From the UHGV virus genome UHGV-1550212: a DNA stretch of 64,000 nucleotides, one strand, 5' to 3'. The translations under genes were made by a program, and so were the position numbers. This DNA is from a virus. The notes beneath the pieces are model-generated. The model worked only from the letters and a program-made list of their open reading frames with translations. It did no database searches and had not been told where the DNA came from. Shown piece by piece: positions 29,732 to 59,723 of the stretch (its first letter is position 1; each line of letters starts with the position of its first letter).

Positions 29732-29816
29732 CGGAGAGTAAGGGATTCGAACCCCTGGTACGTTGCCGTACAGTGGTTTTCAAGACCACCGCCATCGACC
29801 GCTCGGCCAACTCTCC
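29732..29816 (-). tRNA. tRNA-Ser(UGA), long variable arm
   Basis: GGAGAGT ... GTGGT-CTTGAAA-ACCAC, variable arm TGTACGGCAACGTACCA, T arm AGGGG-TTCGAAT-CCCTT, acceptor 3' ACTCTCC perfectly paired. Confidence 0.85.
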
Positions 29817-30010
29817 ATAAAACATTGCATAAGCATTCTTATCTCTTGATGAGACCAAGTAGCTAATTTGGCAAGTTTGTTATATCTATCGTGACTGTTG
29901 CAGTTTGTTTGTCACTCAATACACAAAACTTTCGAACATTCATTGACAGCACTGCAATATCGCTTTTTAAGCTTAGCCATCAATGTATTTATGCAATGTA
30001 TAACAATTCG

Positions 30011-30092
30011 TAGCCAAACCGGGACTTGAACCCAGACTCCTAATGGAACAACATTTTGAGTGTTGCGTGTCTACCAATTCCACCATTTGGCC
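30011..30092 (-). tRNA. tRNA-Leu(CAA), long variable arm
   Basis: Anticodon arm CAACA-CTCAAAA-TGTTG, variable arm about 13 nt, T arm CTGGG-TTCAAGT-CCCGG, acceptor GGCCAAA/TTTGGCT. Confidence 0.8.
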
Positions 30093-30182
30093 ATTTACAA
30101 ATGCAATCTATTTCACAACTGTTTGCATTTGCATTGTTTAACACTAAAAATATGATTCATCTAATCAAAAACCAGAGAATTG

Positions 30183-30256
30183 TAGGGTAGACAGGACTCA
30201 AACCTGCGACCACGTGGTCCCAAACCACGCATTCTAATCAACTGAACTACTACCCT
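30183..30256 (-). tRNA. tRNA-Pro(UGG)
   Basis: AGGGTAG-TA-GTTC-AGTTGATTA-GAAT-G-CGTGG-TTTGGGA-CCACG-TGGTC-GCAGG-TTTGAGT-CCTGT-CTACCCT-A. Confidence 0.85.
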
Positions 30257-30262
30257 AAGTAG

Positions 30263-30334
30263 TTGAACCGTCTGGACTCGAACCAGAAATGGCTGAACCA
30301 AAATCAGCTGTGTTACCGATTACACCACGATTCA
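30263..30334 (-). tRNA. tRNA-Gln(UUG)
   Basis: TGAATCG-TG-GTGT-AATCGGTA-ACAC-A-GCTGA-TTTTGGT-TCAGC-CATT-TCTGG-TTCGAGT-CCAGA-CGGTTCA-A. Confidence 0.85.
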
Positions 30335-35050: not shown

Positions 35051-35079
35051 ATTGTACAACAAGAATGCAAAACTTGCAC
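35051..35079 (-). promoter_or_regulatory. Promoter-like motif (sense AGTGCAAGTTTTGCATTCTTGTTGTACAAT)
   Basis: About 30 nt upstream of ATG 35020. Confidence 0.45.
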
Positions 35080-41766: not shown

Positions 41767-44700
41767 TCAATTACATGCTGAATGTCCGCAGTTGGTGCAT
41801 CGAACACAGCCATCAAACTTGACCATGTCACCGCCGCATTCAGGACACTTTGCATACATCTTTGAGCCATCTTGAATATGCAGTTTCAATGCGCGCCCAA
41901 TTGCTTTGCAGAATGTTCCGACAGATGCAAAGCTTTTTGCAGTTTGGTCGACAATTTCGCCAAGGTCAATGCCATTGCGAAGCATCGTTGAGTACAGTCG
42001 AGTAATTGTTTGCTGCTCGTCTGAACCAAGACGTTCTGAGATATTATCATAGTGCTGCAAGAATGACAAATTATCACCAAGCTTGTAGTGCTTCTTATCA
42101 GTCTTTGTGATTGTCGTTTGTTCAATGCCTTGCAACTTGTCGAATTCATCTTTGTCAAGTTCAAATGCAAAGATTTCATAAGGTCGACCGTCATCACAGC
42201 CTACAAGAATACACCACTTGCGCTTATACACTGACACGCAATACACTGCAGCAGGCAATACTGGTTTTCGTTTTGAGCGATGACCAGATTGCAAGATGTG
42301 CGACTTGTCTTTTGACTGCTTGTCATCTTTTACGAGAACACCTGCACGTGAGCCATCTCGATAAATTGTGCAGCCTTTGCAGCCAGATTTCCATGCAGTC
42401 AGATAAATTTCACGAACAAGCTCTTTTGTTGCAGAGTTTGGAATGTTGACCGTTACAGAAATTGACGAGTCAATGTATTTTTGCAATGCACCTTGCAATT
42501 TCACCTTGCCAATCCAGTCAACATCTTCAGTAGTTGCCTTGTAGTATGGTGATTGAATAAGCAATTCATCAATGACTGCTTGCGGAGCATTTGACAACCA
42601 AGCTTTGATGCGAGACATTTCTGCTTCTGACCATTCAATGCCAGTATCTTTGACAAGAGTAAATTTGCCATCGCCAAGCTGCACTCGTTTACAAATCCAC
42701 TGCATCAACGGATAATGAACTACAGCGTATTCAATGAACTTGTCACCAGTAGTCTCATCAATGAAGTTGATGTCGGCCTCATTATCAACTGCAGTTGGCT
42801 TACGACGACGTTTATGTAGTGGCATAAATACGGGCTCAATACCAGACGTTGTCTGAGTCATCAAAGCTGTAGTGCCTGTTGGTGCAATTGTGGTCGTGTT
42901 AATGTTTCGACGGCCAAATTGCTGATAAGTTTTGATGTGCTCATCATCAATCAGTTCAGATAGCATACGCTGGATGAACTTTGATTGCACATCTGTGTCA
43001 TAGTCAAATATTGCAAATGAGCCACGAATCTTTGCCAAGTCAATTGACGCTTCATAAGTCGCCTTTACAAGCCATTGTTGCATAGTGACTGCGAAGTCAA
43101 TTGACTCCTGCGAGCCATAACGCAAGCCAAGCATCGCCATTGCATCGCCAAGCGCAAGGAAGCCCATGCCATATCGACGAGTGTTTGTCAGTTTATCATA
43201 AACTTTGTGCCACAAGTCAAGTTCAGTCTTTTTGATGTCAAAGTCTTCTTTATCTGACCGAACCTTTGCAATGATTCGTTGCACTGCTTCAATTTCAAGC
43301 TGCACAAGGTCATCCATGATGACTGCACAGTCATATGTATCTTTGTAGAATGTCTCAAAGTCAAATGATGCATCAGCAGTCCAAGGATTAAGCACATATG
43401 CAGTCAAATTGCGATGCGACAAAATGCAGCTTGCATATGCAGCGAGAGGCTGTTCACCGCAATTTAGTGTATTGACTACTTGCTTGTCATTGACAGCAAT
43501 AAAGAAATTGTGGAAGTCTTCTACTGTGCCATTGTACACATCTGCTTTGTTCATGTGACGTGTTGCAACGACTTTGACAATTGCATCACCAGTAGTGTCA
43601 ATGTCTGCATATTTGCTGCAGTCACCTAACGCTGCGCAAGCATCACAGCAATATGCTTGTTCACGATTGTCATAAGAAACTTCGAATTCTTTACCACAGC
43701 ACTCGCATTGTTTGATAACTGTGTTTCGTTCTGTTTTTACAAGCTCGTCAGTCTTCAATGCAATTGATAGCTTATCTGCGCTTGGCATATCAATTGCCCA
43801 CAATGAGTCATTTGTTGCAAGGTCAATTGCATTCTTGAAATCGCCATTAGCAAGCCTGAACTCATGATTTGCTGTGCAATTGATGACATGGCCGTCATCA
43901 AGCACAATTTGAATGATTTGCGCATTATGTGCAGTCAATCTGGGTCGACGCATTGTGCGCACAACGAGCTTGCCATTAGAGTCAAGACAATATACTGGAA
44001 TGTCTTCACCACTATCAGCAAGCTCTTTGAATGTCTTCAAACCTGAGCCATCAGCAACAAGTACTTTTGTGTCACCTGTGAAGCATGGATTTGTTGAGCG
44101 CTCTTCATACATTTTGCCATATGCTTTCGAGTTCGACTCTTCCATGATACGGTCCCAGAAGAACACGCCGGGTTCTGCAGATGCCCATACGTTATCAACA
44201 ATTTTGTCAAACAATGCTTTTGCATCTGATGTCTTATGCAGCTCTTGGCCATTAGAGCCACGCCAAACATGCTCAAACTGTTGTTCTGCAAGCACTGCAC
44301 GCATAAATGCATCAGTAAGCTTGATTGAAATGTTTGCGCCTGTGATTTTCGTCAAGTCCTTTTTTGCATCAATGAACTTATCTGCGTCAGGATGCTCAAT
44401 TGACAATGACAACATCAATGCGCCACGCCTGCCATTTTGTGCAACTTCTTTTGTTGATGTTGAAAAACGTTCCATAAATGACACTACACCAGAAGTTGTA
44501 ATAGCACTGTTATGCACTTCTACGTCTTCTGGACGAATGTGCGACAAATCATGACCAACGCCACCACGACGCTTCATCAACTGAACTTGCTCTTCATCTG
44601 TTTTGAAGATGCCGCCATATGAATCTGCGTCATTGCCAATTACATAGCAATTTGACATTGACGTGTAACCGCCAAGACCAATACCAGCCATTGGAGAACC

Positions 44701-44988
44701 ACCAAGCACAAACCGCTTAAAAGGCTCAAGTAAATATGCAAGTCGTTCTTTTGACAATACACGTTTGCCTGTCTGTTCTTCAAATTGTGATTCGATGCGG
44801 TCAAATTCATTGACCCAGCGCTCATGCATATCAGACAATGAGTGTTCATACAAATTGTCTTTGTCATGATGCAAGTATTTTGACATGCATATGTCAGCAG
44901 CCATTGAATCGCCTGTAAATTCATGCGTCAGTGTAGTGTGCACTTCAGCATATTCAGGCGACCCAATTTGAATGGGATGTTTTGTCAT
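41767..44988 (-). CDS. nrdJ: Ribonucleotide reductase, class II-like (NrdJ-type) catalytic chain, interrupted by an intein
   Basis: RRGALMLSLSIEHPDADKFIDAK signature; catalytic motif split as ...ERSTNP | intein | CGEQPLAAY, giving NPCGEQPL after excision; C-terminal zinc ribbon CPECGG ... CVRCTNCGHSAC. Start at MTKHPIQ (ATG 44988). Confidence 0.75.
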   Translation of the reverse strand: MTKHPIQIGSPEYAEVHTTLTHEFTGDSMAADICMSKYLHHDKDNLYEHSLSDMHERWVNEFDRIESQFEEQTGKRVLSKERLAYLLEPFKRFVLGGSPMAGIGLGGYTSMSNCYVIGNDADSYGGIFKTDEEQVQLMKRRGGVGHDLSHIRPEDVEVHNSAITTSGVVSFMERFSTSTKEVAQNGRRGALMLSLSIEHPDADKFIDAKKDLTKITGANISIKLTDAFMRAVLAEQQFEHVWRGSNGQELHKTSDAKALFDKIVDNVWASAEPGVFFWDRIMEESNSKAYGKMYEERSTNPCFTGDTKVLVADGSGLKTFKELADSGEDIPVYCLDSNGKLVVRTMRRPRLTAHNAQIIQIVLDDGHVINCTANHEFRLANGDFKNAIDLATNDSLWAIDMPSADKLSIALKTDELVKTERNTVIKQCECCGKEFEVSYDNREQAYCCDACAALGDCSKYADIDTTGDAIVKVVATRHMNKADVYNGTVEDFHNFFIAVNDKQVVNTLNCGEQPLAAYASCILSHRNLTAYVLNPWTADASFDFETFYKDTYDCAVIMDDLVQLEIEAVQRIIAKVRSDKEDFDIKKTELDLWHKVYDKLTNTRRYGMGFLALGDAMAMLGLRYGSQESIDFAVTMQQWLVKATYEASIDLAKIRGSFAIFDYDTDVQSKFIQRMLSELIDDEHIKTYQQFGRRNINTTTIAPTGTTALMTQTTSGIEPVFMPLHKRRRKPTAVDNEADINFIDETTGDKFIEYAVVHYPLMQWICKRVQLGDGKFTLVKDTGIEWSEAEMSRIKAWLSNAPQAVIDELLIQSPYYKATTEDVDWIGKVKLQGALQKYIDSSISVTVNIPNSATKELVREIYLTAWKSGCKGCTIYRDGSRAGVLVKDDKQSKDKSHILQSGHRSKRKPVLPAAVYCVSVYKRKWCILVGCDDGRPYEIFAFELDKDEFDKLQGIEQTTITKTDKKHYKLGDNLSFLQHYDNISERLGSDEQQTITRLYSTMLRNGIDLGEIVDQTAKSFASVGTFCKAIGRALKLHIQDGSKMYAKCPECGGDMVKFDGCVRCTNCGHSACN
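43462..44085 (-). mobile_element. Intein (208 aa) inserted at the catalytic Cys of the reductase
   Basis: Starts CFTGDTKVLV (block A), block B TANHEF, block F DVYNGTVEDFHNFFIAV, ends ...VVNTLN followed by Cys +1; middle has a small Cys cluster (CECCGK ... CCDAC ... C), no LAGLIDADG motif seen. Confidence 0.65.
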
Positions 44989-45941: not shown

Positions 45942-47483
45942 TTATCTACTTGCAGAATCCCGCATTGAAGTCATGACTTGCTCTTGAATTGTTATAGGCA
46001 TGATGTTGAAGTCTGACAATTCAGCAATGTCATCAACGTCAAGAGCTCTCAATGTATCTGTGGTGCAACAAGTCACAATGATTGACTTGCGAACAAACTC
46101 ATCTGCGACATTCCACAATAGTTGACAAATTGCTCGATTGTCAAGACAAATTTCATTAACTGTACGAACAAGACTGTACCATGCAGTCACATTGTTGCGT
46201 TTCAGAGTTTCAAGCATATATCGTGCAAGCCCAAAACCTGCTACATATAACCCAGTCTGTTTGTTGAATGACTCGATTGCGTATGCATCAAACAATGCTT
46301 CTGTCATCAAGGGCATTGCTGCAGTCATTCTGTAGTATCGATAGTCAACGCAGACAATTAGCCAGTTAACATATGAATTGACTGCATATGCATATGCCTT
46401 GAAGCCAAGGTCATTCAAGATTTTGCAAACAGCATTGTAAGTCGATTCATCAGCATTGCCAAAGTTTGCAAGCAACTTAACTTTCAGAATGTCTTCACCA
46501 ATTGCATTTCTTGTAGCAGTGAATGATGGCATACATGCAAAGCTTCTTTTGCAGATGTCTGTGATAAGTTGCTGTGCATCATTTACAAGTTGTCTTGCAG
46601 CCTCAGCACGTTTTTCAGACTGTGCTTGATATTTTGGTCGCAACTGTGATGAGCCAGTCGCAGCACCATATCGCATAGCAGCTTGCCAGTCCTTGAGATT
46701 ATTTTGCAATTCACGAACATAGTCTGCAGCAACCATTGCAGATGGAGTTCTTTGTTGCTCGATTAGTTTGTTGATGTTTGCAAGCACATCTGATGCAAAC
46801 ATATCTTTTGGCTTGACTCTTGCAATTTCAGCAAGCACTGCCGGTACACGAGCAATACCGCGAGGTTCATTTGAAACTACTACTGCATAGTCTACAAGTG
46901 CCTCACATACAAGCTGCTCATCAACAAAGTACTCAGGATTCTGCACAGCATCTTCAACAACTGCAATCAATGTTGCTCTACGATTGTCATCAGGTTTGTT
47001 GCCAAACAGCTCAATGTACAGCATGTCTGCTTGCTGGTCTGTCATTGAACCTGCGATGTCAATTGACTTTGCAAGTTTGTTAAGCAGTTCAGCTTGCTTA
47101 CTTGACAATCTGACTTTGTATGACGACTCTACGGCTTCTTTGACTGCTTTGAGTTTTCTATCAATGTCAAGGCTGCTTTCATTGACATTCATGCCGACAA
47201 TACTTGCAGCTTCAGTGTTAAATTGCTCAACAGTTTCTGCTGCAGTTATTGGCACTGACACAATAGATTGTTTTGCATTTGCTGCAAGCTGATTGAGTCG
47301 ATTGACTGCTTCAGAATCTTGCACAACTGCAAGATATCTTACGCACAGCTCATCAATCTGTGAAAGATAACTTTGGGTCATGTTTATCGAAAAAATGTTG
47401 TTTCTTGACGAATAGCTGTTGGATGCAATTTGCGGAAACACTTCGACATTTCTAAGTTCTGATGATGACAACAATGTTTCCAT
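45942..47483 (-). CDS. Hypothetical protein (513 aa)
   Basis: Long ORF; no motif recognised. Confidence 0.55.
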   Translation of the reverse strand: METLLSSSELRNVEVFPQIASNSYSSRNNIFSINMTQSYLSQIDELCVRYLAVVQDSEAVNRLNQLAANAKQSIVSVPITAAETVEQFNTEAASIVGMNVNESSLDIDRKLKAVKEAVESSYKVRLSSKQAELLNKLAKSIDIAGSMTDQQADMLYIELFGNKPDDNRRATLIAVVEDAVQNPEYFVDEQLVCEALVDYAVVVSNEPRGIARVPAVLAEIARVKPKDMFASDVLANINKLIEQQRTPSAMVAADYVRELQNNLKDWQAAMRYGAATGSSQLRPKYQAQSEKRAEAARQLVNDAQQLITDICKRSFACMPSFTATRNAIGEDILKVKLLANFGNADESTYNAVCKILNDLGFKAYAYAVNSYVNWLIVCVDYRYYRMTAAMPLMTEALFDAYAIESFNKQTGLYVAGFGLARYMLETLKRNNVTAWYSLVRTVNEICLDNRAICQLLWNVADEFVRKSIIVTCCTTDTLRALDVDDIAELSDFNIMPITIQEQVMTSMRDSASR

Positions 47484-47495
47484 GTGATATGTATT

Positions 47496-48104
47496 TTAGC
47501 CTGCAAACTCATTGATTTTTAGGTCATTTGTCGTAACTGCAAAGCAATCAATGTGCAGCCATGTGACGTCTTTTTCTATACGACAACGATGCGGCAATTC
47601 ATCTGCATGCTCTTTAATGAGCTTTCGCATTTCTGCAGCAGTCATATCTGCAGACTGACAATCAATTGCTGCGCCATTACAATGAGCACTCAAATAAAGC
47701 TTGTTTGCAAGCGTTTTGTCTTTTGGAATTTGACAAATATTGCATCGTAAGCCACGTTGACTCATTGCGCCGCCTTTAGCCCAATTATTGACACATAACG
47801 GCACTTTCAGCACAAATTTGCGTAATGCAAGCAGCAAATCAAGCAGTTCTCTGTCAAGAAACTGCCAAGAATTATCGCCAAACTTGTCATAGCAGTGTTT
47901 GCATACAAGTTCTTTTATGCTGAAATATTGCTTAAGCTCTGCAATAACAGAGTCTCTTGAAGCACTTGCAATATCTGCAATGTTAGTTATGCTGTTGTTG
48001 CTGTTGTTCATGTTGTCTGTCAAGTTCTTTGCATTTGCACTCATTTCGTTCACCCATGACTTTTGTAATACCTGCAGTTGCAAACATGCCTGCGACTGCG
48101 CCAA
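47496..48104 (-). CDS. Peptidase M15-family cell-wall hydrolase (endolysin candidate); true start probably internal (MNNSNNS, about 48011)
   Basis: Zinc-ligand motifs YLSAHCNGAAIDCQSADM (SxHxxGxAxD) and TWLHID (WxHxD). ORF-track N-terminus overlaps the holin-like gene out of frame. Confidence 0.6.
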   Translation of the reverse strand: MAQSQACLQLQVLQKSWVNEMSANAKNLTDNMNNSNNSITNIADIASASRDSVIAELKQYFSIKELVCKHCYDKFGDNSWQFLDRELLDLLLALRKFVLKVPLCVNNWAKGGAMSQRGLRCNICQIPKDKTLANKLYLSAHCNGAAIDCQSADMTAAEMRKLIKEHADELPHRCRIEKDVTWLHIDCFAVTTNDLKINEFAG

Positions 48105-48294
48105 TTATGCCTGCAACTGCGCCAAGTTGTTCAGTTGTTTTGCCAGTTGCTACGACTTCCCATATGATTGCAAAACAAACAACGAGTAATATAAAGATGC
48201 CTATAAAAGTCACAGCTACGACAAAAAATGATTTGACTGACACACCAGTGTCATTCGTCACTAAGTTGCGCATTGTAAATTTGTTGTTATTCAT
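47983..48294 (-). CDS. Holin-like small membrane protein
   Basis: Two hydrophobic helices (FFVVAVTFIGIFILLVVCFAIIW; LGAVAGIIGAVAGMFATAGI) and a charged C-terminus; directly upstream of the M15 peptidase. Confidence 0.5.
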   Translation of the reverse strand: MNNNKFTMRNLVTNDTGVSVKSFFVVAVTFIGIFILLVVCFAIIWEVVATGKTTEQLGAVAGIIGAVAGMFATAGITKVMGERNECKCKELDRQHEQQQQQHN

Positions 48295-48396
48295 AGGGAT
48301 GGCGAACTGTACACATTGTGCATATTGTACACACTATATATTGTATGTGTTTGTATATGTATTTTAACAGGCATTAGCAAACAATACAAAAACAAC

Positions 48397-48438
48397 AAAT
48401 GAAAGTGGCCCAGATGTATATCTGAGCCACTTTCATTT
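48397..48438 (-). terminator. Hairpin (13-bp stem aaatgaaagtggc / gccactttcattt with inner stem cagat / atctg)
   Basis: Inverted repeat between the nucleotidyltransferase-kinase gene end and the holin start. Confidence 0.5.
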
Positions 48439-48455
48439 ATCGTATAGTCTGTTTA

Positions 48456-50111
48456 TTATGCAAGTAGTGTTTGCAGCATATAGCAGCCTTTTGCATATGC
48501 AACAATTGCTTTTGCAGGATTGTTCTTGATGTATGCAGGTAACTTGAGCCAAATCAATGACACAAGTACTTTCTGTCGCAGCGTCAAATCAAGTTCATCG
48601 ATATTGTAGCCAATGACTTTTGCTCTGACATCGCCATCAACATAATCGAATTGCTGATATGCTGACTGATTGAATGCATCATAGCCAGACAAGCCATACG
48701 CAAACTTTGCAATGTCATAATCGATGTCACCTGTCATCTTAACGTCACCAAAGTAGCCTCTTGGGTCAATGAACATGCATTTTGATGAATCTGCACTGAA
48801 CATCGTATTTGACGTATTCGGGTCACCATGAATGAATGACCAATTTTCGCATGCATAGTCAATTGAATCTTCTTGCGACAAGAAGAGTCTTAACTTGCTC
48901 ATCAGTTCATCGAATGGCATCAATGCAATGCCATTGAATGATTTGATGCCTGCTACAAGTGACTTGACTTCAGCATATCTTGCAATAGTAGTCTCAATGT
49001 ACTCTTTGCGCATTGCGTCAATCATTTGTTGTCTGCTAACGGGCCAAATCTCGTCATTGTCAAGATTGCTTGCATGCAATTCATTGATTGACTGCTTGAA
49101 TGTCGTCATGCAGCCGCGCGCAATTGCAGCATATCTACGCTCAATATCAACTTTATTGAGGAACTGATGCACAGTCACTCCGTTAATTTTCGACATTTTG
49201 ATGAAGTCTTCACCAGTTTCAAATATCGATGGAATGACTGTTGATTCTGCATTCATCGCATGACGATACCACTCTTGCTCTTTCTGAATGAGTGCCAAGC
49301 CTCGAGCATTTGTAGCAGATTTTGTAACAATATCGCCATCAATGCTAATGCTATTGAAATATCGCACTTCATTGTCACGTGCAGTCTTGACTGCTTCACT
49401 GACAAATACACCACGTTCACCATATGAATGACAACCAGCAATTTCATATCTGTCTACAAATGTAACGTTGGTCATCAAATCAGCAAAATCAGCATTGCTA
49501 TCATTGTGCTGCATATCAATGACATTGTTATGAAATGCTGCAGGTACATAGTATGCACCGACAATGCCACTATGATATGTTGACTCACATATGTGGTCAA
49601 GCATATATGATTCTGCATCTGCATATGAACCTACTTTGTTGTACACTTCTGCAGGAATAAGATGAAGTCTGCAATCAATATCATTTGACGTGCAGCAAGT
49701 TATGCAGCCAGTTTTGAATTTGTCAAGTGGCAATTCAATATCGCCAAGCCACACATCAGACCAATGATAGAATACATTGCATTCACCAATGTTGTTAGCA
49801 ATAAACATTGCTACATCTGCGCATGCTTTTGCTGAGCCATCAGCTTTGTCATGCACAATAGTTGACAATTTGATATCTGGCGCAAATGCTGCAGCATGTT
49901 CATGAATCATTGCTGCATGAGTGTCATTTGCACATGCAACAATGAATTCATCAAACTGTTGAGCATAGGATGTCAAAATCTTTGCGAGCACTGTTTGTTT
50001 GCCTGCATTTACAAGCGTTTTTGGAATGTAGTTATTACCAGTCATTGTTGACATGCGAGTGCCCAAACCACATGCAATGATTGCTAACACATTTGGATAT
50101 TGATGAGACAT
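48456..50111 (-). CDS. Bifunctional sugar-phosphate nucleotidyltransferase + aminoglycoside-phosphotransferase/choline-kinase-fold kinase
   Basis: N-terminal LAIIACGLGTRMSTMTGNNYIPKTLV resembles the LicC/RmlA-type signature; C-terminal kinase motifs FIHGDPNTSN (HGDxxxxN) and FIDPRG. Start at MSHQYPNV (ATG 50111). Confidence 0.65.
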   Translation of the reverse strand: MSHQYPNVLAIIACGLGTRMSTMTGNNYIPKTLVNAGKQTVLAKILTSYAQQFDEFIVACANDTHAAMIHEHAAAFAPDIKLSTIVHDKADGSAKACADVAMFIANNIGECNVFYHWSDVWLGDIELPLDKFKTGCITCCTSNDIDCRLHLIPAEVYNKVGSYADAESYMLDHICESTYHSGIVGAYYVPAAFHNNVIDMQHNDSNADFADLMTNVTFVDRYEIAGCHSYGERGVFVSEAVKTARDNEVRYFNSISIDGDIVTKSATNARGLALIQKEQEWYRHAMNAESTVIPSIFETGEDFIKMSKINGVTVHQFLNKVDIERRYAAIARGCMTTFKQSINELHASNLDNDEIWPVSRQQMIDAMRKEYIETTIARYAEVKSLVAGIKSFNGIALMPFDELMSKLRLFLSQEDSIDYACENWSFIHGDPNTSNTMFSADSSKCMFIDPRGYFGDVKMTGDIDYDIAKFAYGLSGYDAFNQSAYQQFDYVDGDVRAKVIGYNIDELDLTLRQKVLVSLIWLKLPAYIKNNPAKAIVAYAKGCYMLQTLLA

Positions 50112-50136
50112 TGTGTAGTGTTGCTTATATGAAAAT

Positions 50137-50192
50137 ATTGTACAACATGCATTGCAAATTTGCAATGATACAACATGCATTGCTATTTTGCA
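50137..50192 (-). promoter_or_regulatory. Two tandem promoter-like motifs; the first contains the 18-bp palindrome cattgcaaatttgcaatg
   Basis: attgtacaacatgcattgcaaatttgca + atgatacaacatgcattgctattttgca, 26 nt upstream of ATG 50111. Confidence 0.5.
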
Positions 50193-50440
50193 AGATGACA
50201 ATGCTTACGCCATACTGCAATTTCAACATCTGTAGCAAAATCAAAGTGCAAGCCATGCAATTGTTTCATGTCATATTGACGTCTTGCAATATACTTGTTG
50301 CCAACTCGCTCAACAACAGAACCAACTTCTACTACATTTTTAGAATGTCGTGGCTCATGTAATGGCACTCTGAATATGTATCTGCCATCTAATGTTGACA
50401 TTATATCACCATTGTCAATTATGCCTGTTTGCCTGCTCAT
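50183..50440 (-). CDS. Hypothetical small protein (85 aa)
   Basis: ORF overlapping the promoter-like repeats of the downstream gene; weak. Confidence 0.3.
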   Translation of the reverse strand: MSRQTGIIDNGDIMSTLDGRYIFRVPLHEPRHSKNVVEVGSVVERVGNKYIARRQYDMKQLHGLHFDFATDVEIAVWRKHCHLAK

Positions 50441-50455
50441 TGTTAAAGCATCAAG

Positions 50456-51130
50456 TTATTTTTGAATGTCTGCAAGTTCTGCTGCAATTCTATTGTATGC
50501 TAATATGTGCTTAATTGCGTCATCAAGCAGCTTGTTAAATTCAAGATACTGCTGCAGCACTTTGTCATTCTGCAATGACTGCTCAAGCGCAGCATAATCA
50601 CCTGCAAACGGGCGATTCATTGACAGACCAAAGTTCTTCGCGCATTTAGCATAAAAAGCATTGTACTCTGCAGCATCAATCGGTGTCGCGTCATGAGCAT
50701 TAAGCGCACTTTCACTGAGCAATGGGATTGTAAGTTTTCTGCAACGAGTAAACTCATCTTTGTCGACATACAGCACAGAACAACGAACGACATGGTCTTC
50801 TGCATTCATGCCGCCAGTCAACAAATCCATGTCCCAATCGAAGCAAATGTTGTAGATGTACAGCATCACAGTTCGATGTTTTTTGTAGACAAATTTCCAG
50901 TATCGAGACTTCTTGCATATATCTTTGATATGCTGCAAGTCATGCATAAATTTGTCATACGATATCGCATCAAAGCGAGGCAATGATTTGTTGTCAATGA
51001 ATGCGTTTGCTGCATCTGCACAACGTTTGAATTCTGCTTGATGCATATTTAGCTCTTCTGTGCGCTTTGCTACAAGTGCTTCATATTCTGCTTTTGCAAG
51101 TTCAAGTCTTGCTTCATACAAACTTTGCAT
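50456..51130 (-). CDS. Hypothetical protein (224 aa)
   Basis: ORF; no motif recognised. Confidence 0.5.
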   Translation of the reverse strand: MQSLYEARLELAKAEYEALVAKRTEELNMHQAEFKRCADAANAFIDNKSLPRFDAISYDKFMHDLQHIKDICKKSRYWKFVYKKHRTVMLYIYNICFDWDMDLLTGGMNAEDHVVRCSVLYVDKDEFTRCRKLTIPLLSESALNAHDATPIDAAEYNAFYAKCAKNFGLSMNRPFAGDYAALEQSLQNDKVLQQYLEFNKLLDDAIKHILAYNRIAAELADIQK

Positions 51131-51155
51131 ATTTGTGTACGTTTATGAGTTTCTG

Positions 51156-51611
51156 TTAAAATTTGCCATCTGCTACTTGAAAGCATCGATAGCCAAGCTC
51201 TCGCCATTTAGCAACCATAGAATCACGGTCTTCAAGTATAAACGCGATTTGTTTCAGCTCATCTTCAGACAAGGCTTCTACAAGCAATTCAGGCTTGACA
51301 AGTGTATCATGACGTTTATCACCATCTTTTCGCATAAGAATTTGCGGATTGACGATTCTGCCATCTGTATGCTGTGCAAGCCAAATTTCTGTCATTTGTC
51401 TACAGCTTTCACGACGACCTGTGCAGAATATGATTCTGTAGCCAACTTGCTGCAAATCGCAAAGCAAGTCAAGCACAGTCATAATGGGCATGTCTTCATG
51501 ACAGTGTGCATAAAACGCATCCCAATCTTTGTTTGATTGTTGAAGATATTTTAGACGGTCGCCAACTTTTGAAATTGTTCCGTCAATGTCGCATATAATG
51601 ATATTTGCCAT
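51156..51611 (-). CDS. HAD-family polynucleotide 3'-phosphatase-like protein (resembles the phosphatase domain of T4 polynucleotide kinase)
   Basis: IIICDIDGTIS (DxDGT), IIFCTGRRE, and C-terminal ILEDRDSMVAKWRELGYRCFQVADGKF, which matches my recollection of the T4 Pnk tail [27 protein letters not shown]. Confidence 0.6.
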   Translation of the reverse strand: MANIIICDIDGTISKVGDRLKYLQQSNKDWDAFYAHCHEDMPIMTVLDLLCDLQQVGYRIIFCTGRRESCRQMTEIWLAQHTDGRIVNPQILMRKDGDKRHDTLVKPELLVEALSEDELKQIAFILEDRDSMVAKWRELGYRCFQVADGKF

Positions 51612-51630
51612 GATGTGTATGCTTATGAAA

Positions 51631-51654
51631 GGAAGAGCTCAATTGAGCTCTTCC
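51631..51654 (-). terminator. Palindromic hairpin ggaagagctc-aatt-gagctcttcc
   Basis: Perfect 24-bp palindrome 20 nt upstream of the phosphatase start and downstream of the preceding gene. Confidence 0.45.
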
Positions 51655-51685
51655 TGATAGTCAACTTGATAAACCTCTACGAAAA

Positions 51686-52558
51686 TCAAGCCTGACTACT
51701 TTTGTTGATTACGAGATACTTGTATCGTTCTTTGATTGTGATGTTCTTTGATTTTGCAGCCTCGATTTCTTTGCGTTCCTTGGAGGAATAGTTGAACTTG
51801 ATATAGTCGGAGAACAATTCGGGCTTATCTGCTACTTCATTGTTCTTGACTTCTTTTACAAGAGTTTGCTGAAACTCATTGATTGTAGTGAAACCGAGGA
51901 ATGACTGGAACTTGTTAAGCGGAAACAGCTTATCTGTGTTGTCCTCGAATGTCGGGAATTCGTCAGAATACGTAATTTCAATTTGGTCTACAAAATATCT
52001 GAGTTTTTCCCAGGGTTCCTTGCCAATGAGGAGAATGTTCTGATGGTCGAGTTTTTCCTCGAACATTTCCAGGAGACATTCGTATGATTTTACGAGACGA
52101 ACTCCAGGATATGTAATTGATGCAATTGAACGAGGTTTGTGAGTCGTCTTAACTTCTTTATTGTACGTTTCCTCGTCAATGCAATAGATGTATCGCTTAA
52201 CCTTGTCGTATTCTTTAGGAAGATAGTTGTTGTCAAGGAATTGCTTGTCAACTACAATGAAACTGAAAGGATAGAGTTCATTGAATCGTTGGCGAAGCTG
52301 TTCTGTTGCAAGGAAGAAATGCGAGCCATCTTTTGCTGCAAATTCCATATTTGAATTGCATCCTGCATATGCAATGTATCTGTTTCGCTTCCATTTGAGG
52401 AATCGACTTACCAGGTTCTTTTCGAAGATGTCCTTGTATTTGAAGTTAGTGTCCCAGTACTCCTTAACAATTCCATCTTGCATTTTTCTTGACAATTTTG
52501 AATTGTCTACCGGCCTATCAGTAAAAACTGAAGGTTTGTTTGCGTTGTATAATCCCAT
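51686..52558 (-). CDS. Hypothetical protein (290 aa) with codon usage unlike its neighbours
   Basis: ORF whose sense strand is visibly richer in GAG/CTC/CGA/TCC-type codons than flanking AT-rich genes; no motif recognised. Confidence 0.5.
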   Translation of the reverse strand: MGLYNANKPSVFTDRPVDNSKLSRKMQDGIVKEYWDTNFKYKDIFEKNLVSRFLKWKRNRYIAYAGCNSNMEFAAKDGSHFFLATEQLRQRFNELYPFSFIVVDKQFLDNNYLPKEYDKVKRYIYCIDEETYNKEVKTTHKPRSIASITYPGVRLVKSYECLLEMFEEKLDHQNILLIGKEPWEKLRYFVDQIEITYSDEFPTFEDNTDKLFPLNKFQSFLGFTTINEFQQTLVKEVKNNEVADKPELFSDYIKFNYSSKERKEIEAAKSKNITIKERYKYLVINKSSQA

Positions 52559-52595
52559 TGTAGTAGAGGTTTGTTAATTTATTATTTATAGATAT

Positions 52596-52624
52596 ATAAT
52601 ACTACGACAATGCAAATTTTGCAC
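52596..52624 (-). promoter_or_regulatory. Promoter-like motif (sense GTGCAAAATTTGCATTGTCGTAGTATTATA)
   Basis: About 38 nt upstream of the start at 52558. Confidence 0.45.
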
Positions 52625-52653
52625 TGTCGTAGCATAAAAGTTTACACATTTTT

Positions 52654-53004
52654 TTACAAATGTGAGAACAACTTATTCGTAACTCGTTCAATTGCAAATT
52701 CAACACCATATTGCAATAACTGTTCAGTGCTAAATGACCTTGCTGCACGTGCAGGTGCTACAATATGCTTTGATTGCGCATACAAAATCCAAGTATCAGT
52801 TGGCCTGTCATAAGTAACTGTCAGTCTGTATGTTTGCAACACAAACTCTTGACTAAAGTGTTCTCTTCGCCAAAACTCTGGTTCTGCAATATGCAAATCA
52901 AACCAAGCAAACTCAAACAAGATTTGTTCGAGTTGACGTTGATGCTTGCGTTCAGCACGATATGTACCGCTGAACAGATACTTGATGATGTTCATCATTT
53001 GCAA
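52654..53004 (-). CDS. Hypothetical protein (116 aa)
   Basis: ORF. Confidence 0.45.
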   Translation of the reverse strand: MQMMNIIKYLFSGTYRAERKHQRQLEQILFEFAWFDLHIAEPEFWRREHFSQEFVLQTYRLTVTYDRPTDTWILYAQSKHIVAPARAARSFSTEQLLQYGVEFAIERVTNKLFSHL

Positions 53005-53711
53005 TCATTATGCTGAGTATGAATTGCGTTGCCCTGTGAATCCAAGCGAATCGCAGTTTGCATTGCGACTTCAGATTGTATTTGTTCTGCCACATAAGAC
53101 TTTCCGATGCCCCCGCCTGGATGTACTGCCCTGAACCTATCAAAATCTGTGCCCAGCTGCTCAGCAACAGACAGCATGATATTATCACCAACGAGCTGAG
53201 ATGCCAGCAGAGAATTCGTCGGAATTCGCGGATTGCGTGAGTCCTCATCAATTGCTGGCAATGACACAAGCAAATCTGCCCAAGCATTCATATCAGTGAC
53301 CTTGCCACCAGCAAAGTTGATGCCAATGATTTGGCAATTCGGTGCAAGCAATTCACGATGTTCACGAAGATATGTCATTGCAGTTGCAAGTTCAGATGTG
53401 TTGCCAGTTTTGCTGAATGCTACAATAACATCGTTGTTTCGAATCATGCCAAAGTCACCATGCATTGCATGCACTGCATCAAAGAATGATGCGTTCAATG
53501 ACAAGCAATAACATGTTGCAGCAAGTTTTTCACAGCAATGCACATTTTTACCAATGCCAGTGAACAACACTTTGCCATCAGACTTCAATGCATTTGCAAT
53601 GATATCTGCTGCAATACCAAGAACGTCATATTGCGCATCTGAAATATTGTTGTGCCATGCTACAAGCGATTCAACTGATGCAGCAATGCCTTTGTGTACA
53701 AGTGTTTTCAT
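52995..53711 (-). CDS. SIS-domain sugar-phosphate isomerase, arabinose-5-phosphate isomerase-like (KdsD/KpsF-type SIS domain without CBS domains)
   Basis: GKVLFTGIGKN, HGDFGMI, VIVAFSKTGNTSEL and FRAVHPGGGIGK line up with the KdsD motifs GKVVVMGMGKSG / HGDLGMV / VIAISNSGES / SHPGGALGRKLL as I recall them. Start at MKTLVHKG (ATG 53711). Confidence 0.75.
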   Translation of the reverse strand: MKTLVHKGIAASVESLVAWHNNISDAQYDVLGIAADIIANALKSDGKVLFTGIGKNVHCCEKLAATCYCLSLNASFFDAVHAMHGDFGMIRNNDVIVAFSKTGNTSELATAMTYLREHRELLAPNCQIIGINFAGGKVTDMNAWADLLVSLPAIDEDSRNPRIPTNSLLASQLVGDNIMLSVAEQLGTDFDRFRAVHPGGGIGKSYVAEQIQSEVAMQTAIRLDSQGNAIHTQHNDCK

Positions 53712-53730
53712 TTTTGTGATGTTTGAAGGT

Positions 53731-54411
53731 TCAAAGAAACTTGAGTTTTGACAGCATTTCAGTGTCTTGTTCAGTGTTGATGCAGAGCTCTTGCATAACA
53801 TCAAGCAATGCAGACCATAATTGCTCATATGATTTGCCGTTGTTCATAACAACAGCGTCAACAAACAGCTCATCTATGTGTTGTTCACTTGAATGACTGA
53901 TGTTTTGCTTGACATCATCATTGACAATTTTAATGAGTTTGAAACCTCTTGAACGCAATGCGGTCGCTTCGTTTGGATATCGACAATCGCCAACACAAAT
54001 AAGTGCTTCATTATGACAATTGTCAAGTCGATACAGCAAACTGTTTACAAAGAAGTCTTCACCATACAGTTTCTTGAGCGCATCTGAAACATCAAGATGC
54101 ACATTGCGAATCGATGAACCTGCAAACTCTACAAAGTGTTTCTGTTTGAATGCATTGTTATGCAAGTCTTGCAAATTGTAGCCCAGTGTACTTGCAATAA
54201 ATGCTTTCAGTGGCTTTGCAAAGCACTCATATGCAAGATTGCAGCCACATGGCCAGTATGGATTTGCTTCAATTTGCTGCAAAGTTGATGTGTAAATGCC
54301 ATCAATTACAGTGAACTTGCATTTAGTCATGACTCGAATCATCGCCCAAGCCAAATCTTTGCCTACGCCTGCATGACCAACAAGCGCAATTTTTGTTATG
54401 TCATCATTCAT
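53731..54411 (-). CDS. Deoxynucleoside monophosphate kinase (T4 gp1-like)
   Basis: P-loop KIALVGHAGVGKDLAWAMI versus T4 gp1 KLIFLSGVKRSGKDTTADFI; C-terminal D-x-R ... E pattern also similar. Confidence 0.65.
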   Translation of the reverse strand: MNDDITKIALVGHAGVGKDLAWAMIRVMTKCKFTVIDGIYTSTLQQIEANPYWPCGCNLAYECFAKPLKAFIASTLGYNLQDLHNNAFKQKHFVEFAGSSIRNVHLDVSDALKKLYGEDFFVNSLLYRLDNCHNEALICVGDCRYPNEATALRSRGFKLIKIVNDDVKQNISHSSEQHIDELFVDAVVMNNGKSYEQLWSALLDVMQELCINTEQDTEMLSKLKFL

Positions 54412-54793
54412 TGCACCACTGTTTAAGAGTCACAAAATTGTTGAAGTCTGCATAAAAGTCATCACCACCGTTAAGCATTGCGACATTCTCAAGTTCATTG
54501 AGAATGATTTGCTTATCAATGACTATTGCAAGAGCGTCAAAGTCTTCTTTTGATTGCAAGTTAAGTAGCACAGGATGACCTTTGAGTCTTGTAGTTAATG
54601 TTGCTGGCAGTCTATGCACAGACTTCTTTTTCTTTGACTGCGTAGGATGTTTTGAGCGCTTTCTTGTAGCAGTCAGCTGAATATCATAATCAATTTCAAG
54701 CAAACCTGCATCTTGCATTACAAAATTGAGATTAACATGCACAGGATACTTTTGCTGAATGTCTATGAATTCTTGTAATTTGTCGTTTATCAT
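54404..54793 (-). CDS. Hypothetical protein (start at MINDKLQEF)
   Basis: ORF 54404..54886 trimmed because a promoter-like motif (54817-54845) and hairpin (54852-54879) lie inside the longer N-terminal extension. Confidence 0.45.
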   Translation of the reverse strand: MINDKLQEFIDIQQKYPVHVNLNFVMQDAGLLEIDYDIQLTATRKRSKHPTQSKKKKSVHRLPATLTTRLKGHPVLLNLQSKEDFDALAIVIDKQIILNELENVAMLNGGDDFYADFNNFVTLKQWCNE

Positions 54794-54816
54794 TTGAAAT
54801 GCATTTGTATATGATA

Positions 54817-54845
54817 ATTGTACCACGTATGCATCAACTTTGCAC
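54817..54845 (-). promoter_or_regulatory. Promoter-like motif (sense GTGCAAAGTTGATGCATACGTGGTACAATT)
   Basis: 24 nt upstream of ATG 54793. Confidence 0.45.
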
Positions 54846-54851
54846 ACAAAA

Positions 54852-54879
54852 CAAGACCAGCTCAATTGAGCTGGTCTTG
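54852..54879 (-). terminator. Hairpin caagaccagctc-aatt-gagctggtcttg
   Basis: 12-bp perfect stem; shares the core agctcaattgagct with the hairpin at 51631-51654. Confidence 0.5.
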
Positions 54880-54897
54880 CGGTCATATGTAGACTTC

Positions 54898-57366: not shown

Positions 57367-57478
57367 TATTGTACAACATGCATTGCATATTTGCAATGAT
57401 ACAACATGCAAAATGCACTTGCACTTTGATGCAAAGTACTGCGTACACAACATGCATCGCGTATTTGCATTTTGACGC
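57367..57478 (-). promoter_or_regulatory. Array of three tandem promoter-like units
   Basis: attgtacaacatgcattgcatatttgca / atgatacaacatgcaaaatgcacttgca / tactgcgtacacaacatgcatcgcgtatttgca; closely related copies at 50137-50192 and 58517-58590. Confidence 0.5.
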
Positions 57479-57482
57479 AATG

Positions 57483-58565
57483 TCATTGTTGTTTATGCCA
57501 GCCATATGATGCCTGACCAGCATCATACACTTCTACGAAGCCATGGTCGTACATAAAATCTTCATTACGAGTGCCCTTGCCCCCATTAGTGCCAAGAATA
57601 CGGTCTGCGCCATGCATAAGCAGCATATTATTTGTGACATGTTGCTTTGTCAGCATATTGAACCAGTGTTTGCTATATGACAAGCCAAGACCATCAAAGC
57701 CCAGCTTTGTGTACACACCACCGTCAAACTTGCTTAAATCACAATATGATAACACAGATTCAGGGTCATATGTCTTGATAAAGTGCTTAAAGATTCGTTC
57801 AGCACCACCAACAACTTTGGTTGCTGCACAAAGACGTAGCAATTCATATTGATAGCGCTTATTGTATCGTGGACGACCAAATGTCATAAGTTGATGAATG
57901 ACATAACCACCAAGCAACTCAAGTGGATGACCTTCAATCAACGCAAGATTGATAAAATTGCCTGAGCACTTGCCTTGCAAATGATGTTCAATCAAAAATT
58001 GATTTGCAGTATACTTGTCAATTTCAACAACTTTAAGCTTGCGAGCATATACAATCTTTGATTTGTCTACGATTTGATGCTTGATGTGATTGATAACTTT
58101 CTTGGCGTCATCCCAGTCCCACACATGAATGCAATGAAAGCCTGCTGATTTGGCGATGTCTGTTTTCTTTGCATGAATATCACAAGGCAAATGCGAATCT
58201 TTTGCATCATGCATAAACAGATGTTCAAATGAATGTGTGCTGTTATGTGAAAATGCAGGATTGATGTTAATGACAATATTGTCATGTCGAAAATCGAAGA
58301 CTTCATCGCCAATGACAAAGTTGCGCTCAAAATTTATACCGACATGTTTGAGTAACACTTGATGCCACACATCTTTATAGGCTGATTCAAGCTTGCTTAG
58401 CTCATCACAGTTTGCAATGTTTTTGTAACGTTGAATAGCAGCATCAAAGTCAAGATTGACTTCAGCGTAGTCTGCATTTTTATCGTAGTGAAATTTTGAG
58501 CTCATGTGTATAATTTTGTATGAGATTATTGTACAACATGCAAATGCATGTTGCATTTGATGCAA
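57483..58565 (-). CDS. Homing-endonuclease-like protein, paralog 3 of 5 (nuclease-like domain N-terminal, different downstream module)
   Basis: DNIVININPAFSHN ... GFHCIHVWDWDD near the N-terminus; C-terminal GFVEVYDAG shared with the other paralogs; middle region with ANQFLIEHHLQG. Confidence 0.55.
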   Translation of the reverse strand: MHQMQHAFACCTIISYKIIHMSSKFHYDKNADYAEVNLDFDAAIQRYKNIANCDELSKLESAYKDVWHQVLLKHVGINFERNFVIGDEVFDFRHDNIVININPAFSHNSTHSFEHLFMHDAKDSHLPCDIHAKKTDIAKSAGFHCIHVWDWDDAKKVINHIKHQIVDKSKIVYARKLKVVEIDKYTANQFLIEHHLQGKCSGNFINLALIEGHPLELLGGYVIHQLMTFGRPRYNKRYQYELLRLCAATKVVGGAERIFKHFIKTYDPESVLSYCDLSKFDGGVYTKLGFDGLGLSYSKHWFNMLTKQHVTNNMLLMHGADRILGTNGGKGTRNEDFMYDHGFVEVYDAGQASYGWHKQQ

Positions 58566-58612: not shown

Positions 58613-59674
58613 TTACTTTGTATTGCTACGCGTCATTGTTAAATGACCGCAATCATACACATCAACTTCTGTTTTGCCAAGCATGCATGTATGACAATTT
58701 ATTTTGAAATCTGCTGCAGCGTAATCAGGATAGTTTAGTGGAGATTCTTTTGACAAATCAATTTCAATTGTGTCAGTAGTTTTAAGCTGTTCAGTACCTG
58801 CAATGATATCTGCAATAAGATTGATAACTTCTTCTTGTGAATCCCAATCAAACACAGTTATGCAACGATAGCCTACATCAAGTGCAAGTTTTGTTTTATT
58901 GTAATGGTATTGCGCACCAATAACATTGTTGTCTTTTGCTCGACCAGTTAAATATGCAAAACTAACAGTGCAGTTGTGCGTAACTGTTGGACAAATTTCT
59001 ATAAGTAACTTTGCAGGCTCATACTGCAAATCATATGTTTGATTATTGATGTTAAACTCGTACTGTGTATCAATTGCCAACTGTCGTAATAACGCATCAT
59101 GCCACATCATATTACATTTAGAAATTGTTTTGGATGACAATCTGCATTGAGGCAATTGACATGGCCAATCTACGCCGTACATTTGTTGTGTTGTTTGACG
59201 CATTTTGTTAACATCACCAAAATGATTGCCATATCGATGCTCTTTGGTTTTAAGCGACTGCTCAATATTGACATTGCCTACACAACCATAACGTTCAAGT
59301 TTTGTTGCAGCAGTTTTGCTAACATCACCATGTCCATTACCAAATTTGGCGACTTTAGTTGCAAGTATTTTATGACTTGGGCCAAATGCATTGCCATACA
59401 ATTCTTGTTTAGTCGCAAGCATTTTGTCGATATTACAACCAGCGCCATAAGTGTTATGCATAGTTTGCATACGCTGTCGAATAAATTTTGGCACAGATAA
59501 AGGACTTTCTACACCATATTTGCGTAAGCAACTGATTTTGCATGCGTACTTTTGCTTGATGACAGAATGTGCATTTCGACGTCCTATGTAAGTATTTTCT
59601 GATGTAGCAGCAAGCTCTGCATCTCTAAGAACTTCAAGTGCAGCAATTCGTGCTTCAATTTCTTCAGATGTCAT
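58613..59674 (-). CDS. Homing-endonuclease-like protein, paralog 4 of 5
   Basis: MTSEEIEARIAALEVLRDAELAAT; repeats LERYGCVGN / HRYGNHFGD / QMYGVDWP; LLIEICPTVTHN ... GYRCITVFDWD ... VDVYDCGH. Confidence 0.6.
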   Translation of the reverse strand: MTSEEIEARIAALEVLRDAELAATSENTYIGRRNAHSVIKQKYACKISCLRKYGVESPLSVPKFIRQRMQTMHNTYGAGCNIDKMLATKQELYGNAFGPSHKILATKVAKFGNGHGDVSKTAATKLERYGCVGNVNIEQSLKTKEHRYGNHFGDVNKMRQTTQQMYGVDWPCQLPQCRLSSKTISKCNMMWHDALLRQLAIDTQYEFNINNQTYDLQYEPAKLLIEICPTVTHNCTVSFAYLTGRAKDNNVIGAQYHYNKTKLALDVGYRCITVFDWDSQEEVINLIADIIAGTEQLKTTDTIEIDLSKESPLNYPDYAAADFKINCHTCMLGKTEVDVYDCGHLTMTRSNTK

Positions 59675-59694: not shown

Positions 59695-59723
59695 ATTGTA
59701 CAACATACAAATGCGTTTTGCAT
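59695..59723 (-). promoter_or_regulatory. Promoter-like motif (sense TGCAAAACGCATTTGTATGTTGTACAATT)
   Basis: 21 nt upstream of ATG 59674. Confidence 0.45.

Follow-up and report, generated by a model that had tools for sequence, protein, structure and literature searches.

A 64,000-nucleotide stretch of the virus genome UHGV-1550212, hereafter the window, contains a 6.4-kb block of genes (48.4–54.9 kb) that we read, with a probability of about 65%, as one half, the sugar-donor half, of a system hypermodifying cytosine in the DNA of a distant T4-like gut phage. By analogy with the arabinosylation pathway of phage RB69, the block would most likely make a nucleoside diphosphate (NDP)-pentose, namely NDP-arabinofuranose. 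All genes around the block lie on the minus strand, and their grouping is beyond chance: strong terminator-like hairpins flank the block on both sides, and a pair formed by a nucleotidyltransferase/kinase fusion and a 290-aa protein recurs in three other phage lineages. The five genes that a first-pass annotation of the window had named here are all present on that strand:

48456–50111, minus strand: AfhE-like fusion of 551 aa, with an N-terminal nucleotidyltransferase and a C-terminal APH/choline-kinase-fold kinase (from profiles and RB69 homology)
51156–51611, minus strand: stand-alone small HAD phosphatase of 151 aa, in the polynucleotide kinase (PNK) phosphatase-domain family (HAD_PNKP, PF25109, E = 2e-30)
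51686–52558, minus strand: 290-aa protein with a dihydrofolate-reductase (DHFR)/RibD-reductase fold, a conserved open reading frame (ORF) of a rare phage-only family
52995–53711, minus strand: SIS-only arabinose-5-phosphate isomerase of the KpsF/GutQ/KdsD type, 238 aa (from profile and PDB matches)
53731–54411, minus strand: T4 gp1-like deoxynucleoside monophosphate (dNMP) kinase (PF21448, E = 9.5e-7; phrog_139, E = 4.9e-28)

An exact 44-mer match and a gene look-up place the window at positions 32001–96000 of the 174,628-bp source contig IMGVR_UViG_3300045988_152288. The contig was read near-completely, all but ~1.9 kb at its left end, with some stretches read through near-identical ENA/Logan contigs and positions 130,823–174,628 taken directly from the IMG/VR sequence. 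A Gp23 capsid protein, a T4-type terminase, a portal protein, gp2, gp13 and gp32 identify the phage as a distant T4-like myovirus, which also encodes a clamp loader, a topoisomerase II, a split family-B DNA polymerase, an NAD-dependent ligase and a ribonucleotide reductase. A megablast of window positions 48000–54500 against 50,697 phage records returned no match.

The two halves of the fusion are recognisable separately, the N-terminal one by a match to NTP_transferase (PF00483, E = 2.3e-5, residues 11–121) and the C-terminal one by the kinase motifs HGDPNTSN and IDPRG, and phrog_4098 covers the full length of the protein (E = 7.6e-76). The fusion is homologous to two proteins of the RB69 cluster, gp52 (E = 2.6e-29) and gp53 (E = 2.4e-6), and the motifs that it has in common with gp52:53, GxGTR...IPKxLVN, HGDPNxSN, FIDPRGYFG and KNNPxKAxxAYxKG, go beyond the generic ones. 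This homology suggests that the fusion is the nucleotidyltransferase/anomeric kinase of a phage NDP-pentose pathway. By tblastn, homologues occur in 372 phage records, 303 of which cover at least 80% of the query; those in the Chryseobacterium phages MA9V-1 and MA9V-2, the Tenacibaculum phage PTm1 and T4-like phages are 28–30% identical to it. The T4-like carriers include Escherichia (JS98 type), Klebsiella (Marfa), Yersinia, Acinetobacter and Serratia phages, and TG1 too is among the records with a full-length homologue. No PDB sequence matched the fusion at E ≤ 0.1.

The isomerase matches SIS (PF01380, E = 5.5e-8), the KpsF/GutQ model TIGR00393 (E = 6.5e-21), NF008141 (E = 1.5e-18) and phrog_5670, 'arabinose 5-phosphate isomerase' (E = 1.2e-28). 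Among structures its match to PDB entry 5uqi reaches E = 2.2e-15, with further matches to 3etn and 2xhz, and the catalytic motifs GxGK, HGDxG, SxxGxTxE and HPGG are aligned. It lacks CBS domains, since only positions 1–154 of the 268 in TIGR00393 are matched. RB69 gp55 is a homologue (E = 2.2e-16), and the distribution of isomerase homologues among phages, again by tblastn, resembles that of the fusion. For both enzymes the types proposed by the first-pass annotation, a fused nucleotidyltransferase/anomeric kinase and a SIS isomerase of the arabinose-5-phosphate type, agree with these family and RB69 matches. The gp1-like kinase gene lies next to the isomerase in the window, and its homologue adjoins the fusion gene in the metagenomic relative L006.

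RB69 and DLP3 carry genes that route ribulose-5-phosphate to NDP-arabinofuranose (Lee et al. NAR 2026, PMC13326640; the enzymology is credited there to He et al. and Mahler et al. 2025, Cell Host Microbe). In that pathway an isomerase makes arabinose-5-phosphate, which the kinase of AfhE turns into the 1,5-bisphosphate; AfhF, a HAD phosphatase, then takes off the phosphate at position 5 and the transferase of AfhE forms UDP-arabinose, shown to be UDP-arabinofuranose, after which glycosyltransferases place arabinose on 5-hydroxycytosine in DNA (PMC13326640). Carriers of the pathway are RB69, DLP3, HY126 and related Straboviridae, and the fold matches reported for the RB69/DLP3 fusion homologues are MurU/AmgK and LicC/LicA (PMC13326640). 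Since the fusion and the isomerase are homologous to RB69 gp52:53 and gp55, the sugar-donor module is a member of this known kind, and, as in RB69, DLP3 and HY126, it brings together a SIS-only isomerase, a fused nucleotidyltransferase/APH-fold kinase and a small HAD in one block. The phage itself lies outside the RB69-like phages, with its best matches in Chryseobacterium and Tenacibaculum phages. As in the AmgK/MurU and LicA/LicC pairs, an APH-fold kinase would make a 1-phosphate or phospho-alcohol that a small NTP-transferase activates; unlike in those pairs, the transferase here precedes the kinase within a single protein, the fusion is linked to a pentose-phosphate isomerase, and the genes are those of a phage.

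No Thymidylat_synt match was found in the scanned window ORFs of at least 200 aa, which places the base-modifying enzyme outside the window. A search of the rest of the genome, as the first-pass annotation had suggested, located candidates for both a dCMP hydroxymethylase and glycosyltransferases on the same contig, ~58–72 kb away from the block. The relevant genes are:

L022:2068–3126: TS1, an ordinary thymidylate synthase in which the canonical C146, H147, Q165, D169 and N177 are all kept
L024:5398–6492: c364, KdsC-like HAD directly upstream of TS2, homologous to MA9V-1 gene 084 (phmmer, E = 2.4e-22)
L024:6377–7399 (contig ~144.07–145.09 kb): TS2, a cytosine-specific ThyA homologue (Pfam Thymidylat_synt, E = 9.3e-24)
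L026:2967–3692: dCMP deaminase (PF00383, E = 6.1e-21)
L026:3664–4830 and L026:8268–9443: c388 and c391, paralogues resembling T4 beta-glucosyltransferase, with T4 beta-gt and alpha-gt as top fold matches
L026:9425–10663 and L026:4827–6383: GT412 and GT518, paralogous candidate glycosyltransferases with weak GT47 and Glyco_trans_1_2 matches
L026:6429–7001: c190, thymidylate kinase (TMPK)-like kinase, homologous to MA9V-1 gene 087 (phmmer, E = 2.5e-25; phrog_761)
Contig ~119.6–120.0 kb: MazG-type pyrophosphatase of 124 aa beside a dUTPase/DCD gene (phrog_229, E = 1e-35)

Of the two ThyA homologues on the contig, TS2 is the one that bears on cytosine. It scores E = 7.6e-13 against RB69 gp48 and 1.5e-9 against Escherichia coli ThyA (phmmer). 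When E. coli ThyA, T4 gp42, RB69 gp48 and TS2 are aligned by MAFFT, TS2 equals T4 gp42 at all diagnostic positions (L143D, H147T, Q165M, C168N, D169, G173, N177D, W80 and Y209), and RB69 gp48 has D169N, G173V, W80A and Y209F. D169N is the published signature of 5-hydroxy-dCMP synthases (PMC13326640). Gene 088 of MA9V-1 has a gp42-type residue pattern like that of TS2, and the closest relatives of TS2 among phages bear the annotation pyrimidine hydroxymethylase. From this pattern TS2 is predicted to be a T4 gp42-type dCMP hydroxymethylase, not a D169N 5-hydroxycytosine synthase. Given the gp42-type active site, with beta-gt-like and other glycosyltransferase genes alongside, the predicted product is pentosyl- or arabinosyl-5-hydroxymethylcytosine instead of arabinosyl-5-hydroxycytosine. 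The statement in the first-pass annotation that some T4-like phages have arabinosylated hydroxymethylcytosine is outdated for RB69, whose base is arabosylated 5-hydroxycytosine, yet the hydroxymethyl version is what the enzymes of the present genome are predicted to make. The vicinity of TS2 holds the KdsC-like HAD, the TMPK-like kinase, the dCMP deaminase and the two paralogous glycosyltransferase candidates. MA9V-1 carries the same set of isomerase, fusion, 290-aa homologue, gp42-type thymidylate synthase homologue, TMPK-like kinase and KdsC-like HAD. A profile of GT412/GT518 gave no meaningful PDB match.

As in the RB69 system, then, the genome encodes elsewhere a kinase resembling TMPK, a dCTPase of MazG type and several candidate glycosyltransferases, but the ThyA homologue keeps D169, the HAD of the block is of PNK type, an extra conserved DHFR-fold protein is present, and the sugar module and the base/glycosyltransferase cluster lie ~60–70 kb apart instead of side by side. 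The T4 system consists of gp42, gp1, gp56 and the alpha- and beta-glucosyltransferases; with it the phage shares the gp42-type active site and a gp1-like dNMP kinase, and it has an analogue of the dCTPase and proteins resembling beta-gt. Unlike T4, which draws on host UDP-glucose and has no sugar-activation genes, it adds the isomerase/kinase/nucleotidyltransferase module and two further glycosyltransferase candidates.

The window HAD belongs to the PNK phosphatase family, in line with its earlier description as closer to a polynucleotide 3′-phosphatase than to a sugar phosphatase: besides the PF25109 match it aligns with the PDB structures of Pnkp1 (4xrp, E = 5.9e-15) and T4 PNK (1ltq, E = 2.5e-8), DxDGT, TGR and EDRD motifs are visible in its sequence, and its relatives in 3107 phage records are mostly annotated as PNK. 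Within its 151 aa no P-loop polynucleotide kinase domain is joined to it. Its comparison with RB69 gp51 (AfhF) gave no BLASTP alignment and a single-sequence hhalign probability of ~0.1%; gp51 has no Pfam match, the two fall into different PHROG families (phrog_415/505 for the window HAD, phrog_1238 for gp51), and no relation was found beyond generic HAD motifs. The first-pass annotation had left the HAD outside the pathway and called the pathway incomplete. That view is questionable, since the known pathway needs a small HAD phosphatase. By analogy, the AfhF step could be supplied either by the window HAD or by c364, whose MA9V-1 homologue is annotated as a phosphatase of 3-deoxy-D-manno-octulosonate (Kdo) 8-phosphate, as candidate analogues non-homologous to AfhF.

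The 290-aa protein is a DHFR-fold conserved partner of the AfhE-like enzyme in four phage lineages. Its homologue directly precedes the fusion in the metagenomic relative L004 and lies 2.4 kb upstream of it in L006; in MA9V-1 the order is gene 172 (the 290-aa homologue, ~1.2 kb upstream of the isomerase), gene 173, DHFR, isomerase, two small ORFs and the fusion. The family is rare, with 9 homologues among 5.8 billion clustered proteins in addition to MA9V-1 gene 172 and its MA9V-2 counterpart, and an HMM search of 1.84 billion representatives gave only 16 members and no bridge to known families. The protein has no Pfam DHFR_1 match, and hhalign against a DHFR alignment gave a probability of 2.8%. 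At the places of GR-x-T and GGG, the motifs that bind NADPH, an alignment read by eye shows the segments IVVDKQF and LIGKEPW, so that these motifs are not conserved; a canonical DHFR is encoded apart, at window positions 6713–7216. Having this fold, the protein is not a recognisable glycosyltransferase, and the earlier suggestion that it could be the transferase of the pathway is not supported. Its codon usage, described earlier as atypical, is only marginally so, with a GC content at third codon positions (GC3) of 0.45 where its neighbours have ~0.36; its synonymous-codon log-likelihood, −1.02 where −0.92 is typical, ranks fourth lowest among 39 genes. We also considered the gene as a homing-endonuclease-type insert, given its composition and nearby DUF7487 genes; we rejected this because four lineages keep it linked to the fusion and because it has a DHFR fold. 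If it were a new enzyme of the pathway, it could, for example, tailor the pentose phosphate or nucleotide-sugar, or couple the donor to the transferases.

Put together, these assignments suggest the following route. The isomerase would convert host ribulose-5-phosphate to D-arabinose-5-phosphate, and the kinase half of the fusion would phosphorylate C1 to give arabinofuranose-1,5-bisphosphate. A small HAD, either the PNK-type enzyme of the window or the KdsC-like c364, would remove the 5-phosphate, and the nucleotidyltransferase half of the fusion would join arabinose-1-phosphate to UTP or another NTP, yielding the NDP-arabinofuranose donor. On the base side, the MazG-type dCTPase and the gp42-type hydroxymethylase would make 5-hydroxymethyl-dCMP, which the gp1-like dNMP kinase of the module would phosphorylate, as T4 gp1 does, before incorporation into DNA. 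The four candidate glycosyltransferases, two T4 beta-gt-like and two paralogues with weak family matches, would then decorate the hydroxymethyl group.

Several observations weigh against this reading. The relatives L004 and L006 keep the fusion and the 290-aa gene and have no isomerase or HAD within 10 kb, so the supply of arabinose-5-phosphate may be the task of the host, or the substrate may not be arabinose. The fusion is only 28–30% identical to homologues of the characterised lineage, and its sugar specificity could therefore differ. Searches with phmmer found no homologue of AfhF (gp51), of the arabinosyltransferase gp46:47 (gp79 in DLP3) or of gp50 in the parts of the contig covered, and RB69 gp45, gp46, gp47, gp48, gp50 and gp51 likewise matched nothing among all window ORFs. 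The family matches of GT412 and GT518 fall below the Pfam thresholds, and the model of c391 is of low confidence, with a predicted local distance difference test (pLDDT) score of 56. For the T4 beta-gt-like enzymes, UDP-glucose from the host could suffice as donor, and it would then be open what the sugar donor made by the phage is used on. Finally, because the module is about 58–72 kb from the hydroxymethylase/glycosyltransferase cluster, the functional link between the two rests on analogy.

These observations have to be set beside other accounts of the same genes. The phage might simply make the RB69/DLP3 base, arabinosyl-5-hydroxycytosine; TS2 would then work as a flavin-dependent 5-hydroxy-dCMP synthase although it lacks the published signature of one. 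The sugar-donor genes are of RB69 type, TS2 scores better against gp48 than against E. coli ThyA, and the D169N rule is empirical and comes from a limited set of enzymes. We nevertheless consider this account unlikely, as TS2 reads MRSND like T4 gp42 and keeps D169, G173, W80 and Y209, whereas gp48 reads MRSQN and differs at all four, and as the hydroxymethylase annotation of the phage relatives of TS2 and the T4 beta-gt-like enzymes nearby also argue against it. A target other than DNA for the nucleotide-sugar or other activated phospho-alcohol made by the module, such as remodelling of host lipopolysaccharide (LPS) or capsule or glycosylation of the virion, was the alternative raised in the first-pass annotation and is in our estimate improbable too. 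Such a target could be served by a Kdo-type isomerase and KdsC-like route, given that in bacteria the Kdo/LPS pathway uses isomerases of KdsD type and HADs of KdsC type. The present genome resembles that pathway in its KdsD/GutQ-like isomerase and its KdsC-like c364, and differs from it in that the isomerase has no CBS domains and that no KdsA/KdsB family match was seen in the contig scans. The resemblance of the fusion architecture to the LicC/LicA and MurU/AmgK salvage pairs and the position of the module next to head-morphogenesis genes would fit a surface target. What speaks for DNA instead is the dNMP kinase within the module, the lack of a Kdo-8-phosphate synthase or CMP-Kdo synthetase family among the matches in the contig scans, and the presence in the genome of a cytosine-specific hydroxymethylase together with enzymes that resemble DNA glucosyltransferases and require a sugar donor; moreover, the fusion homologues characterised in the literature on this pathway all serve DNA arabinosylation (PMC13326640).

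It is possible, though doubtful, that the block is functional as a group only in part, with the HAD a true polynucleotide 3′-phosphatase for end repair, the DHFR-fold protein a folate or nucleotide accessory, the isomerase and the fusion alone in the sugar pathway, and the 5-phosphatase either c364 or a host enzyme. The closest relatives of the HAD are phage PNK phosphatase domains, it has no similarity to AfhF and it is absent near the fusion gene in L004 and L006; in addition, c364, the gene immediately upstream of TS2, has a conserved counterpart in MA9V-1. The HAD, however, has no kinase partner domain and sits between pathway genes inside the terminator-bracketed block, no RNA-ligase family was noticed among the family matches of the contig (no search aimed at RNA ligases was made), and in four lineages the DHFR-fold gene accompanies the fusion, which points to a common function.

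The boundaries of the transcription unit, the smaller ORFs and the promoter-like motifs complete the picture of the block:

54851–54880, minus strand: terminator-like hairpin at the upstream boundary, with a 13-bp stem and a U-tract, just past the Asp-protease gene
54404–54886, minus strand: 160-aa ORF with no family match, called as a gene on the JGI contig too
52654–53004, minus strand: 116-aa ORF with no family match, overlapping the isomerase stop codon
50456–51130, minus strand: 224-aa ORF confined to this phage lineage
50183–50440, minus strand: 85-aa ORF
50137–50193, minus strand: tandem promoter-like motif pair, TTGCAA-N4-GCAATGCATGTTGTAYMAT, with sigma-70-like −35/−10 elements, ending 26 nt upstream of the fusion start codon
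48394–48441, minus strand: intrinsic-terminator-like hairpin at the downstream boundary, with a 20-bp stem and a U-tract, beginning 15 nt past the fusion stop codon
50137–50193, 57368–57411, 58528–58543, 59695–59710, 35051–35066 and 16793–16808, minus strand: copies of the recurrent promoter-like motif, from a motif scan

The downstream hairpin has a folding free energy of −37.1 kcal/mol (z = −10.5) and the upstream one −27.8 kcal/mol (z = −6.1), with 0 of 200 shuffles folding as well as the latter. The upstream hairpin sits within the first codons of the 160-aa ORF as called, and the true start of that ORF may lie downstream of it. The 224-aa ORF has 3 homologues only, each at least 91% identical, with no homologue in the phage collection and no family match. 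The recurrent motif, TTGCAA-N4-GCAATGCATGTTGTA(C/T)(A/C)AT, combines sigma-70-like −35 and −10 elements with a 17-nt spacer, and its long form has 3 exact matches in the window against 0 expected. Its copies precede the fusion, scaffold-like, two DUF7487, GyrB-like topoisomerase and clamp-loader genes. Only this recurrent motif is significant; the generic sigma-70 consensus was found 25 times in the region against 25.9 expected from shuffles. The sigma-70-like form of the motif seems at odds with the Bacteroidota host hinted at by a BACON match and by the nearest phage relatives.

Other features of the phage stand apart from the block. Seven tRNA genes (Gly-tcc, Thr-tgt, Glu-ttc, Ser-tga, Leu-caa, Pro-tgg and Gln-ttg) occupy window positions 28727–30334 on the minus strand, and an ARAGORN 'tmRNA*' call (28727–29169) directly adjoins the cluster. 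The translation of the ribonucleotide reductase gene (41767–44988, minus strand) contains an apparent intein (Hint-like) insert, from NPCFTGDTKVLVADG through VVNTLNCGEQPL as read by eye. The major capsid gene (60022–61737, minus strand) has the most deviant codon usage, with a GC content of 0.51 and GC3 of 0.55 against ~0.40 and ~0.36 elsewhere in the window. ORFs of ~340–460 aa form a multi-copy family, with members at 3290–4633, 16845–17876, 57483–58556, 58613–59674 and 61826–63217 (all minus strand) and more in L017, L018 and L028; most have DUF7487 matches and several share a C-terminal 'NPxFTHNS...SFE...WDWDD'. These ORFs flank capsid, terminase, portal and other essential genes and resemble an expanded selfish family of homing-endonuclease type. 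The family-B polymerase is split into an exonuclease (501 aa, L018:1873–3378) and a polymerase (430 aa, L018:5672–6964) at ~118–122 kb of the source contig, with a 114-aa ORF, the dUTPase/DCD-like gene, MazG and a 275-aa ORF between the halves. A DUF488-N3a gene lies beside the exonuclease gene (L018:1447–1857), and another lies two genes upstream of the 290-aa homologue in L004 (L004:8989–9423). Three consecutive giant genes with no family match (1237, 1267 and 1112 aa; L011:10001–20962, contig ~23–34 kb) precede a sigma-70-like 298-aa protein encoded a few kb on, and the first of them extends into window positions 1–1918. The window ORF at 45942–47483 has a homologue, L004:13711–15741, with weak matches to Acb1 and to 2′,5′-RNA-ligase (2H phosphoesterase) families, and on this sequence resemblance the 513-aa window protein may be a cyclic-nucleotide or RNA-end phosphodiesterase.

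The sugar-donor module itself is already known. New are the gp42-type hydroxymethylase and the T4 beta-gt-like enzymes with which it is combined in this genome, the PNK type of its HAD, the conserved partner with a DHFR fold, and the presence of the module in a phage that does not belong to the RB69-like group. More tentatively, this lineage and MA9V-1 may combine T4-type base chemistry with an RB69-type donor to make an undescribed arabinofuranosyl or other pentosyl 5-hydroxymethylcytosine, possibly extended by the four glycosyltransferases, with the DHFR-fold protein as a new enzyme of the pathway. DNA hypermodifications decide whether phages escape restriction, CRISPR and type IV defence, and they affect the sequencing, cloning and engineering of phage DNA; arabinosylation has been tied to 5-hydroxycytosine only recently. 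MA9V-1, a cultured relative with the same gene set, as is MA9V-2, makes the prediction directly testable. If it is true, the use of the same donor genes together with a hydroxymethylase would mark the sugar and base modules of these systems as exchangeable, and would predict a new base in phage DNA.

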